Source: Candidatus Avelusimicrobium intestinale (GTDB taxonomy: Bacteria > Elusimicrobiota > Elusimicrobia > Elusimicrobiales > Elusimicrobiaceae). From it: a stretch of 64,000 nucleotides of DNA. The position numbers and the translations under genes were made by a program. A model generated the notes under the pieces. It saw only the letters and a list, made by a program, of their open reading frames with translations, did not search any database and had not been told where the DNA came from. The stretch is taken from positions 43,861 through 107,860 of the forward strand of contig CACWYV010000005.1 in the NCBI GenBank assembly GCA_902765225.1, written 5' to 3'. Shown piece by piece: positions 3,857 to 58,965 of this stretch; position 1 is the stretch's first letter, and every line of letters begins with the position of its first letter.

Positions 3857-3923
3857 ATTGTAAAAATATTTCCTGCTGAGGCACAAGGGTCAAAAGACCT
3901 AGATGTATATAGGTCCTTTTAGT
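3857..3923 (-). promoter_or_regulatory. Promoter (TTGTGC-N18-TACAAT) with upstream GGTC-N4-GACC operator array
   Basis: + strand GGTCaaaaGACC ta gatgtata ta GGTCcttt at 3888-3919; the dyad abuts the -35 at 3881-3886. Confidence 0.7.
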
Positions 3924-3939
3924 GAGTTTGGGGATTCGG

Positions 3940-5178
3940 TTATAAACGGCGGATGGCCCAATTTTTGGGGTACAAGTTGTTGGCGCGCGGCCCCAAGTTT
4001 TTCATAAAACCGAGAGGTTTATCGCAATACGTAACCAACACAAACCCTTGGGGCGTACCGGTGGGTAAAGAAAAACTTTCGCGGTGCAGGTAGTGTTGGG
4101 CTTGTTCCAGGGTTAATTCTACGCGCGGATAAGCGGGGGGAGTTAATGAAAGGGCTTGCGCGGCGGAAGGAATTTGTTCTTTCCCTTTTTGTTCAAAAGT
4201 CGGTATGCCGTCAGATAACACGTGAATAAGCCGGTGGGAGTGTGCGTGCTTGCGGGCTGCGTTGGGCAACATGCCGGGCCCGGAAGTAGGACCTTTCTTA
4301 CGGAGTACGGCCATAAAAAGGCCCTCGCTTCGTGTAATACCGGGGATAAAGCGGTATACAGGTTTATTCCAGCCGGAGAGTAAAGAGCCCGTGATGGCCC
4401 AATCGGGTTGCGTGGCCACAGGCAATATTTCCGCGCCTAGTTCCTCGGCGATAAAGTGTACATTTTCTTCGTTTTCCCGGGTGTTAAAGGTGCAGGTACT
4501 GTAAATCAGCAGGCCCCCTTCCCGCAGGCAGGGCCAAATGTCCTGCAGAATTTGGCGTTGGCGTTTTTGACAAAAGTGCACTTGCGGAAAACTCCACTCG
4601 TTTACGGCGGTTTCATCACGGCGGAACAACCCTTCGCCCGAACAGGGAACATCCGTCAAAATCACATCAAACGTCCAGTGGGTCGTGGCAAAATCGCTCG
4701 GATAGTTGTGGGTAACCAATACATCCGGGTGGCCTTGTTTGAGCATATTTTCCAATAAGATATTAGCCCGGCGGCGGTCCGGTTCGTTGGAAACCAACAC
4801 GGATCCTTCCGGCAAAGCCGCACGCATTAAGGTGGATTTTCCGCCGGGAGCAGCGCACAAATCCAACGCCAACACGGGGGAAGTAACATAGTGTCGTAGG
4901 ACGTAATCTAAAAATAAAGATCCGGCCTCTTGCACATAATATACCCCGGCGTGAAATAGTGGGTCTAACGTAAAATTGGGCCGTTCTTTTAACCAATAGG
5001 CCTGTTGACACCACGGCACGGTAACCGCTTGCGGGAAAAGAGATTCTCCGTTGTATTTCCACGGATTAAACCGGATACTGGTAATGGGGGAATCGTCAAA
5101 CGATTGCAAAAAACACTGCCAACGTTCTTGGCCGAACAGGGCAGAAGTATAGGTAATAAATTCGGGTGGTAACTGCAT
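3940..5178 (-). CDS. rsmF: RsmF/NOL1-NOP2-Sun family rRNA m5C methyltransferase
   Basis: YYVQEAGS, LDLCAAPGGKST, DVPCSGEG and YSTCT motifs; C-terminal PUA-like region. Confidence 0.85.
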   Translation of the reverse strand: MQLPPEFITYTSALFGQERWQCFLQSFDDSPITSIRFNPWKYNGESLFPQAVTVPWCQQAYWLKERPNFTLDPLFHAGVYYVQEAGSLFLDYVLRHYVTSPVLALDLCAAPGGKSTLMRAALPEGSVLVSNEPDRRRANILLENMLKQGHPDVLVTHNYPSDFATTHWTFDVILTDVPCSGEGLFRRDETAVNEWSFPQVHFCQKRQRQILQDIWPCLREGGLLIYSTCTFNTRENEENVHFIAEELGAEILPVATQPDWAITGSLLSGWNKPVYRFIPGITRSEGLFMAVLRKKGPTSGPGMLPNAARKHAHSHRLIHVLSDGIPTFEQKGKEQIPSAAQALSLTPPAYPRVELTLEQAQHYLHRESFSLPTGTPQGFVLVTYCDKPLGFMKNLGPRANNLYPKNWAIRRL

Positions 5179-5301
5179 ACGTAATGCTATTATTTTACAA
5201 TTATTTGGCCGAACTTTTGTAGTTGCTTGAAAAAAAGTTATAAAAGCGTTAAACTATAAATAGATGTTAATTGATTGACCACACCGGGAAGGAGGTTTTT
5301 A

Positions 5302-5826
5302 ATGAAAAGAGGTTTTACACTTATTGAATTGTTGGTTGTAGTACTTATCATCGGGATTCTAGCATCCGTGGCAGTACCCCAGTATAAAAAGGCTGTTGAA
5401 AAAGCACGTTTTTCCAAAGTGTTGCAACGGTATTATGCAGTTAAAAGAAAAGCGGACATGTTTACACTGGAAAATCCAAATGGTTCAGGTGATTTTTTCT
5501 GTCCTGATGACCCATCATCGGGGAGACCGTTCTATGAGGGAACGTTGGATGTAACGAAAGGTTGTGAGACATTTTTTGATCGTATGCAGAACGGTATTAT
5601 TTGTTGTCAAATTAAAGACTATGATTTTAATGGGAGTTGTGATAACTGGGGGGGATGTAACGTGATAGTGCGCAAGGATAGAGTCGGCGTTGGCACTAGT
5701 GTGCTATTGTGGTCGGACCGTAGTGCAGATGGAACTTGGACACAAACTGCTGACTGTATAAAACCATACGCTTTTCTGTGTAAAACTTTATCCCCCGAAG
5801 AGTGGGACATACGTATTTCCTCCTAA
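5302..5826 (+). CDS. Type IV pilin / PilE-like prepilin
   Basis: Class III signal MKRG|FTLIELLVVVLIIGILASVA; Cys-rich variable C-terminus; GGAGG RBS. Confidence 0.9.
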   Translation: MKRGFTLIELLVVVLIIGILASVAVPQYKKAVEKARFSKVLQRYYAVKRKADMFTLENPNGSGDFFCPDDPSSGRPFYEGTLDVTKGCETFFDRMQNGIICCQIKDYDFNGSCDNWGGCNVIVRKDRVGVGTSVLLWSDRSADGTWTQTADCIKPYAFLCKTLSPEEWDIRISS

Positions 5827-58811: not shown

Positions 58812-58818
58812 GACATTC

Positions 58819-58849
58819 AAGGGCTCTGAAATGTATTTCAGGGTCCTTT
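58819..58849 (+). terminator. Intrinsic terminator
   Basis: aagggctctgaaat-gt-atttcagggtccttt. Confidence 0.7.
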
Positions 58850-58899
58850 CGTTTCTGCCTTCTCTTAAGCGGAGCCCCGCAGGGGGCAAGTCCTCTCTG

Positions 58900-58965
58900 G
58901 GTCCAAAGACCTAATTTGCCGTAGGCCCTTTGACCCTTGTGCGTTTTTTATTAAACCGTTAGAAT
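58900..58965 (+). promoter_or_regulatory. Promoter (TTGTGC-N17-TAGAAT) with GGTC-N4-GACC operator array
   Basis: GGTCcaaaGACC ta atttgccg ta GGCCctttGACC c TTGTGC. Confidence 0.8.

Follow-up and report, generated by a model that had tools for sequence, protein, structure and literature searches.

A putative palindromic operator array abutting the -35 element marks a regulon of secreted proteins in gut Elusimicrobiaceae

Promoters of secreted-protein genes in gut Elusimicrobiaceae carry a dyad, GGTC-N4-GACC in its exact form, which ends one base upstream of the -35 hexamer and is typically accompanied by further copies or half-copies upstream. The element was analyzed in 64 kb of chromosomal DNA (referred to here as the window) from an uncultured gut bacterium of the family Elusimicrobiaceae, in which an initial annotation had noted it at seven promoters. 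Judged from sequence, the predicted operator array is real and conserved and defines a secretome regulon in gut Elusimicrobiaceae. As proposed in that annotation, the operator is apparently undescribed: searches of the searchable literature for the motif string and for regulation in Elusimicrobia returned nothing relevant. According to the reading preferred here, to which we assign a probability of about 0.62, the dyads would be the sites of one dimeric helix-turn-helix (HTH) factor, most likely an activator, at genuine σ70-type promoters. The kind of mechanism, tandem activator sites abutting the -35 element, is an expected one, and the value of the finding lies in a regulon map for an unstudied phylum, not in a new principle. 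To our knowledge, neither experimental genetics nor a described regulon is available for gut Elusimicrobiaceae. For dozens of gut species that are uncultured and whose hosts include cattle, horse, birds, and humans, the motif provides a sequence-only handle on co-controlled “dark” secreted proteins. It points to a candidate two-component system and a conserved small protein as places to start, and the compact, well-defined promoters, many of them leaderless, might be used in future genetic tools.

The window includes aspS, hisS, asnS, ftsK, dxs, pnp, hydE/F/G, and tolQR-like genes; its polynucleotide phosphorylase (PNPase) is 96% identical to PNPases of metagenome-assembled genomes of Elusimicrobiaceae or “Elusimicrobium sp.,” and its DNA is present in bovine gut metagenomes. 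The exact dyad occurs four times, compared to 0.45 occurrences expected, a number reached in 0 of 100 shuffles. When one mismatch is allowed and a W-rich (A/T) center is required, nine dyads are found, all within the intergenic regions that had been named earlier. The seven sites of the initial annotation were all recovered, with -35 hexamers at 3881–3886 (minus strand, TTGTGC; promoter P3881), 8412–8417 (minus, TTGCAA; P8412), 17223–17228 (plus, TTGAAA; P17k), 46000–46005 (plus, TGGTAA; P46k), 56188–56193 (minus, TTGCAC; P56188), 56257–56262 (plus, TTGTGC; P56257), and 58937–58942 (plus, TTGTGC; P58.9k). The corresponding -10 hexamers are TAGAAT (three promoters), TACAAT (two), CAGAAT, and TATGCT. 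Aligned on the -35 hexamer, the seven promoters have the common form [T(A/G)GG(T/C)C-W4-G(A/G)CC]-C-[-35]-17/18 nt-[-10], and the alignment agrees with the claim that in all seven a single C stands between dyad core and -35 hexamer. The same spacing is seen in related loci and metagenome contigs, for which the search patterns themselves require a single C before the -35 hexamer.

For comparison, 80 loci around pnp were used, each from a different Elusimicrobiaceae species. A 16-bp weight matrix trained on loci of other species only, i.e., with the window excluded, recovers exactly the seven window promoters. The seven proximal sites score 14.4–24.0 bits, and beyond them only the upstream dyads at 56218 and 58898 exceed 14 bits, with about two matches above 12 bits expected by chance in the window. 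The scan found no motif upstream of housekeeping genes or of any other promoter in the window, as had been stated for the former. A more fitting description of the dyad is a 16-bp palindrome of 7-2-7 form, TAGGTCT-TT-AGACCTA; its final two positions coincide with the C and with the initial T of the -35 hexamer. Three details of the initial annotation stand in part. The period of about 24 bp holds within the window (24–25 bp), but across the family it is about 23 bp; the tandem-dyad consensus applies to the proximal dyads, whereas the upstream units are often lone half-sites, either GRCCTA 8–9 nt upstream of the proximal dyad or TRGGYC; and the “weak” hexamer TGGTAA is present, but is no oddity, with TGG or TGT being the conserved state of the orthologous promoter in 42 loci.

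The same architecture was found in most of the 80 related species and in 69 metagenome contigs, the latter being further independent loci with the exact composite pattern, obtained by scanning Joint Genome Institute (JGI) metagenome contigs with TAGGTCTTTTGRCCCTTG-N20-21-TANNAT. Over the 80 loci, the family consensus reads AAGGnCCTA-N8-TAGGTCTTTTGnCC-C-TTGta-N17-TAnaaT, and CTTG flanks 27 among 169 loose dyads, compared to about 1.4 expected; strict dyads number 186 in these loci and the window combined (about 16 expected). Dyad sites are intergenic in 108 of 149 cases, although 89% of the sequence is coding, and TAnnnT follows at 17–18 nt in 41 of 47 non-redundant sites. Left half-sites peak 23, 46–47, 69–70, and 93 bp upstream of the proximal site. 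The recurrence across species loci and metagenome contigs bears out the regulon that had been proposed from the window, and supports the view that the putative operator marks a regulon conserved across the bacterial family.

Positional bias had been named at the outset as the property that would distinguish the element from a repeat of the repetitive extragenic palindromic (REP) type, and such a bias was found in the window and related loci: the element keeps a fixed register relative to -35, -10, and start codon, and its flanks are unrelated. That the dyads are repeated or mobile sequence, i.e., a REP-like or miniature inverted-repeat transposable element (MITE)-like repeat, a promoter cassette copied together with paralogs, or the recombination sites of an invertible promoter, is considered extremely unlikely. 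P56257 and P58.9k do drive paralogs and share extra sequence, and a 31-mer promoter core (TAGGTCTTTTGACCCTTGTGC...) is present in about three copies in the genome and breaks assembly graphs at 56233–56263, where short-read contigs end and the local depth is about three times that of the flanks. However, the -35/-10 spacers and dyad flanks are unrelated among P3881, P8412, P17k, P46k, and P56188, the orientation of the sites is locked to the downstream genes, and no extended repeat was detected by blastn. Moreover, the array upstream of a small open reading frame (ORF), described below, is orthologous in 42 of 42 loci bearing this ORF, with conserved half-sites and free spacers. Dyads are found upstream only, which speaks against an invertible promoter, and four metagenome DNA runs contained no inversion, deletion, or strand-switch joints, a weak test based on contigs only. 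The few listed population single-nucleotide polymorphisms in the 56.2k and 58.9k control regions are located in spacers, not in half-sites. A promoter-linked, presumably operator-type element, not a mobile repeat, is therefore the interpretation supported here. Since the promoter-core 31-mer occurs more than once in the genome, motif promoters may be points of fragmentation in genome bins of this lineage.

The tight geometry between -10 and start codon independently supports the predicted -10 boxes as genuine. In 27 of 130 non-redundant promoters (about 20%), including P8412 and P56188, the start codon is located 4–9 nt past the -10, as in leaderless transcripts; at most other motif promoters, it follows 27–37 nt past the -10, behind a Shine-Dalgarno sequence. 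An extended -10 (TG) is found in 10% of motif promoters, and non-motif promoters of the leaderless type show TGn and no TTG. Leaderless starts are common in the window and many loci, and the non-motif ones have an extended -10 and an A/T-rich upstream region, without a -35. A scan with a generic σ70 consensus misses the motif promoters, its matches being at chance level. Among RNA runs, none was found to contain the target genes, and four metatranscriptomes (shallow, and found via pnp) contained scattered contigs on pnp/rpsO and none on the motif promoters.

The invariant register to the -35, with a single C and a palindrome that overlaps the first T, and the fact that the element travels with a promoter class without TGn would also be compatible with a dyad that is itself part of the promoter, namely a UP-like element or an extension of the -35 that an alternative sigma factor or RNA polymerase would recognize without a separate regulator. 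This is very unlikely in view of a two-fold palindrome that recurs at intervals of 23–25 bp, as far as about 95 bp upstream of the -35, and of a -10 that is an ordinary TAnAAT at 17–18 nt. We know of no sigma factor that reads repeated palindromic DNA in that way. The geometry of σ54 promoters (GG/GC 12 bp apart) is not found either: GG and TTGC are spaced by 15–16 bp, and TAnAAT follows 17–18 nt after TTG.

The genes behind the motif promoters predominantly encode putative secreted proteins. Among 130 downstream ORFs, a crude signal-peptide rule identifies 92, and a further 27 encode the small helical protein described below; 43% of control genes also pass the rule, and several of its misses are evident signal peptides by eye. 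The N-terminus of a typical target consists of M-K-K, a hydrophobic stretch, and A-x-A↓Q (the arrow denoting cleavage). Window targets have no Pfam family or weak matches only, and for the three tested against the PDB, no solved relatives were found by sequence. They include several families of paralogs, i.e., the four genes of the P56188 operon, the repeat proteins starting at 46374, 56460, and 58994, and a receiver-tailed pair (5891–8382), and their homologs in related species are only 25–40% identical. Because of these paralog families and the low identity of homologs, the predicted regulon is a set of fast-evolving exported proteins. In window targets (3815, 8382, 56156, 56460, 58994) and most loci, the predicted cleavage site is very often A-x-A↓Q, which leaves an N-terminal glutamine and recalls the N-terminal pyroglutamate seen on exported Bacteroidetes proteins. 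One of the few targets without signal peptide in the collected loci is a leaderless, rdgB/ITPase-like housekeeping gene (MKILIATTNLNKVKEL...), which is preceded by the same promoter type in two metagenome contigs (L119, position 342; L144, position 1623).

At these σ70-type promoters, head-to-head dimers of an HTH activator would occupy the 7-2-7 dyads. If transcription starts 7 nt past the -10, a position derived from the -10 and the leaderless start codons, the proximal dyad would be centered near -42.5, with the 16-mer extending from -50 to -35. The proximal dimer would recruit or stabilize RNA polymerase at promoters where the -35 is only partly conserved (T94/T59/G75), and one to four further upstream dyads or half-sites at 23–25 bp would add cooperative occupancy. 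Contact of the bound protein with sigma region 4, in the role of an activator, and cooperative binding are both plausible: activation is suggested by a site near -42.5, by a -35 of which only TTG is conserved or which is degraded to TGG/TGT, and by the rarity of extended -10 elements. The degradation of TTG to TGG/TGT is found precisely at the promoters with the longest arrays.

Comparable arrangements are known from response regulators. In Bordetella, BvgA dimers bind every 22 bp, with the last dimer abutting the -35, and as in the arrays described here, the promoters Pfha and Pptx carry tandem head-to-head dimer sites, the most downstream of which abuts the -35, as well as weaker internal sites, and the regulon comprises secreted or surface factors (PMC7250471). 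In contrast to BvgA promoters, the period is 23–25 bp instead of a strict 22 bp, so that the same-face spacing of 22 bp is absent, the half-site is TAGGTCT instead of TAAGAAA, the heptads are arranged as 7-2-7 instead of abutting each other, and the proximal site is usually the strongest. A second parallel is NarL, whose 7-2-7 sites, with TACCCCTAAAGGGGTA as an example, occupy -38 to -47 at yeaR; at yeaR and napF, the site is, like the dyad, a 16-bp palindrome of inverted heptamers 2 bp apart with TA at both ends, is found around -38 to -49, and acts as an activator site (PMC4549865), the comparison with the dyad being one of geometry alone. TAGGTCT-TT-AGACCTA likewise has the 7-2-7 form of a NarL/FixJ (GerE-type HTH) site in its sequence geometry, and its TRGGY core fits the GerE half-site consensus RWWTRGGYN2YY (PMC2695774). 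Unlike the dyad, the NarL heptamer reads TACYYMT, and tandem arrays are the rule only in the case studied here.

No DNA-binding regulator was detected in the window, and protein searches thus agree with the earlier statement that it encodes no obvious cognate regulator. A local tblastn search of 1.8 Mb of loci, seeded with GerE, NarL, CheY, OmpR, cI, CRP, and C2, returned a single match, which is of the NarL type (LuxR-type HTH) and located on a motif-bearing contig (L094). The full-length candidate, a 215-aa REC+GerE response regulator beside a histidine kinase, is encoded on a syntenic contig (L154). An ortholog with ~90% identity at the DNA level is located on a contig of 51.8 kb. The depths of this contig and of the window vary together in four metagenomes (16.6 vs. 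15.4, 20–25 vs. 20, and about 3–5 vs. 2–4 in two shallow runs), and because of this covariation, the organism of the window probably encodes the response regulator as well. Based on this circumstantial evidence, a NarL/FixJ-type response regulator can tentatively be put forward as the regulator of the motif, an assignment that is possible but rather less than probable. In both contigs (L154, 4199–5982; L094, 7203–7394), kinase and NarL/FixJ regulator are located upstream of rsmD, a PD-(D/E)XK gene, and proBA. The regulator gene is called as a 76–81-aa C-terminal fragment in several assemblies, and in one contig (L151), at the start of the contig, the part encoding the receiver seems to be truncated or to carry a frameshift.

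Several observations weigh against a cooperatively binding activator of secreted-protein genes. A period of 23–25 bp does not correspond to integral helical turns, unlike the 22 bp of BvgA, and successive dimers would therefore not share a face of the DNA unless protein or DNA is flexible. The proximal site is the best conserved, which differs from Pfha, and a repressor could likewise use a site abutting the -35. The operon of the candidate response regulator has no motif upstream, for which reason its autoregulation was discarded, and the signal-peptide statistic derives from a crude rule that is also passed by many controls. With regard to the period, lambda OR1, OR2, and OR3 are spaced 24 and 23 bp apart, the cI dimer at OR2 activates PRM from about -42 via sigma region 4, and cI dimers cooperate despite the non-integral helical spacing. 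The lambda example indicates that a period of 23–25 bp is tolerable for cooperative dimers. The control region shared by P56188 and P56257 resembles lambda OR in that three dyad operators about 23–24 bp apart are located between divergent promoters. In contrast to lambda, the dyads are confined to the interval between the two -35 boxes, without overlap with the promoters; secreted proteins and not DNA binders are the products of the flanking genes, a repressor gene is not adjacent, and the sites are chromosomal and spread over many operons.

In the case of a repressor or silencer, dimers would polymerize from the array across the -35/UP region, and the secreted-protein genes would stay silent pending a signal. 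Multi-site arrays with degenerate internal sites are also typical of cooperative repressors, the distal dyad of P46k is located on the -35/spacer of the divergent hydE, where binding should repress, and the TTG and -10 elements look adequate at most targets. However, the strongest site never lies on the -10 or the start, but stops one base before the -35, the classical position of an activator. In addition, the -35 is poorest (TGG/TGT) where sites are most numerous, in keeping with activation, and motif promoters rarely have the extended -10 on which non-motif promoters seem to rely. Repression is thus regarded as unlikely, and activation by a dimeric HTH factor remains the preferred reading.

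The largest array is that of P46k (plus strand), with four sites at 45916–45931 (full dyad), 45940–45953, 45962–45976, and 45985–45998 (proximal), followed by the C, the -35-like TGGTAA (46000–46005), a 17-nt spacer, and the -10 TATGCT (46023–46028). It is the ortholog of a four- to five-site array present in 42 of 42 loci that carry the small ORF. In these arrays, full dyads form the distal and the proximal end and enclose two or three left half-sites, with a period of about 23 bp, and a poor -35 (TGTTAT or TGGTAG) and the -10 TATCTT/TATTCT follow; across the 42 loci, half-sites are conserved and spacers vary freely. The first gene after the large array is always that of a conserved 56-aa protein (46066–46236, plus strand), whose orthologous ORFs of ~56 aa in 42 loci (e.g., L071, 8888–9064) have a good ribosome-binding site and a conserved position near hydE/rpsO-pnp. 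AlphaFold predicts one long α-helix, with a predicted local distance difference test (pLDDT) score of 92. A profile search retrieved 124 cluster representatives, none of which has a functional name; the few that are source-labelled are hypothetical proteins of Elusimicrobiaceae or Candidatus Avelusimicrobium, and the family, which is not represented in Pfam, appears to be restricted to Elusimicrobiaceae.

The predicted single helix lacks an HTH or ribbon-helix-helix (RHH) fold, and because of this and the lack of a Pfam family, the 56-aa protein was dropped as an evident DNA binder. It may, speculatively, be a feedback or co-regulatory component. A more far-reaching proposal is that the array, its binder, and this single-helix protein found only in Elusimicrobiaceae would together form a lineage-specific master switch of the whole secretome, in which the 56-aa protein would act as a feedback component, co-regulator, or unconventional coiled-coil DNA binder, and the regulator would fall outside the characterized families instead of being a standard response regulator of the NarL type. 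This is doubtful and clearly improbable; if true, the controlled secretome would consist of fast-evolving, possibly host- or protist-directed proteins.

The small ORF is followed by the gene of a 1041-aa secreted repeat protein (46374–49499, plus strand). Between the two, a terminator-like hairpin (AAAGGACCTATTCCATATAGGTCCTTT) with a T-run is located at 46327–46353, the arms of which are motif half-sites (GGACCTA / TAGGTCC) in outward arrangement, and which could be an attenuator, an extra binding site, or both. On the other side of the array, the distal dyad of P46k overlaps the -35/spacer area of a divergent, leaderless hydE-like gene (44854–45894, minus strand), which has an extended -10, TGn-TATACT, 7 nt before the ATG in many species. 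As the distance between dyad and hydE varies between species, any effect of the array on the divergent gene is probably secondary.

Among the other promoters, P3881 (minus strand) has its proximal dyad TAGGTCTTTTGACC at 3888–3901 (23.5 bits), the C at 3887, an 18-nt spacer between the -35 TTGTGC (3886–3881) and the -10 TACAAT (3862–3857), and an upstream half-site, GGACCTA, within 3910–3920. Its target (2310–3815, minus) is a 501-aa protein with signal peptide (..TGYA↓QG), which has neither a Pfam family nor a PDB relative by sequence. At P8412 (minus), the proximal dyad TGGGTCTTTTGGCC (8419–8432, 23.7 bits) is followed by the C, the -35 TTGCAA (8417–8412), a 17-nt spacer, and the -10 TACAAT (8394–8389), with upstream half-sites at 8442–8452 and 8455–8463. 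The mRNA looks leaderless, with the ATG at 8382 being 6 nt past the -10. The operon (5891–8382, minus) encodes two paralogous secreted proteins (7009–8382 and 5891–6976, 35% identical). Each combines a clear Sec-type signal peptide with a receiver-like (REC) domain at the C-terminus, which Pfam matches at E = 1e-5 and 2e-4, under the gathering score in either case; export of a receiver domain would be out of the ordinary. Three small proteins with prepilin-type N-terminal methylation motifs (5275–5826, 8560–9126, 13210–13782) are encoded between regulon operons and have no dyad upstream. P17k (plus) consists of a distal dyad TAGATCCAAAGACCTA (17184–17199), a proximal dyad TAGGACTTTCGGCC (17208–17221, 19.0 bits), the C, the -35 TTGAAA (17223–17228), a 17-nt spacer, and the -10 TAGAAT (17246–17251). 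The gene behind it (17310–18971, plus) encodes a protein with an N-terminal membrane anchor or signal, and a homolog is found behind the same promoter type in L102.

The divergent promoters P56188 and P56257 share a control region (56193–56257) with three dyad cores at 56195–56206, 56220–56231, and 56244–56255, whose centers are 25 and 24 bp apart, and both outer dyads abut a -35 via one C. P56188 (minus; -35 TTGCAC, 56193–56188; -10 CAGAAT, 56169–56164) drives an operon of four paralogous secreted proteins (52136–56156, minus), the first gene of which (54729–56156) contains an internal tandem duplication of the shared ~230-aa domain and has a GTG start 7 nt past the -10. The AlphaFold model of this domain, built for five window paralogs, has a pLDDT of 48. 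Its invariant YRG...NGLE...Y.S pattern faintly recalls R-S-E ADP-ribosyltransferases, which may be taken as an impression only. P56257 (plus; -35 TTGTGC, 56257–56262; -10 TAGAAT, 56280–56285) precedes the gene of a 783-aa secreted protein (56460–58811, plus) with repeats of about 50 aa that weakly resemble the helicase-associated (HA) domain; the protein is paralogous to the product of 58994–60547 and to the C-terminal part of that of 46374–49499. Within 56263–56459, about 170 nt lie between the -10 of P56257 and the ATG at 56460. In L092, the homolog of this gene starts 19 nt after the same -10 and has a different N-terminus, and other contigs from the same metagenomes diverge past 56296, which suggests that the 5′ end of the 56460 gene may have been replaced at the strain level. 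P58.9k (plus) has a distal dyad TGGGTCCAAAGACCTA (58898–58913), a proximal dyad TAGGCCCTTTGACC (58922–58935, 24.0 bits), the C, the -35 TTGTGC (58937–58942), a 17-nt spacer, and the -10 TAGAAT (58960–58965); its secreted-protein gene (58994–60547, plus) is preceded by a terminator-like hairpin (58819–58848) just upstream.

An Rfam scan of the window detected three tRNAs and nothing else. At 41390–43134 (minus strand), a terminase large-subunit-like gene (Terminase_6N, E = 1.5e-11) is found beside a gp3-like small-terminase candidate (E = 1.5e-4, under the gathering score), with no further recognizable phage genes nearby; the pair may represent what is left of a prophage, or else a packaging module that has been domesticated. 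Adjoining the gene of a secreted protein (43346–43957), an ankyrin-repeat protein with about seven repeats and an N-terminal hydrophobic segment is encoded at 43990–44841 (plus strand), and bacterial ankyrin repeats often mark proteins aimed at eukaryotic partners.

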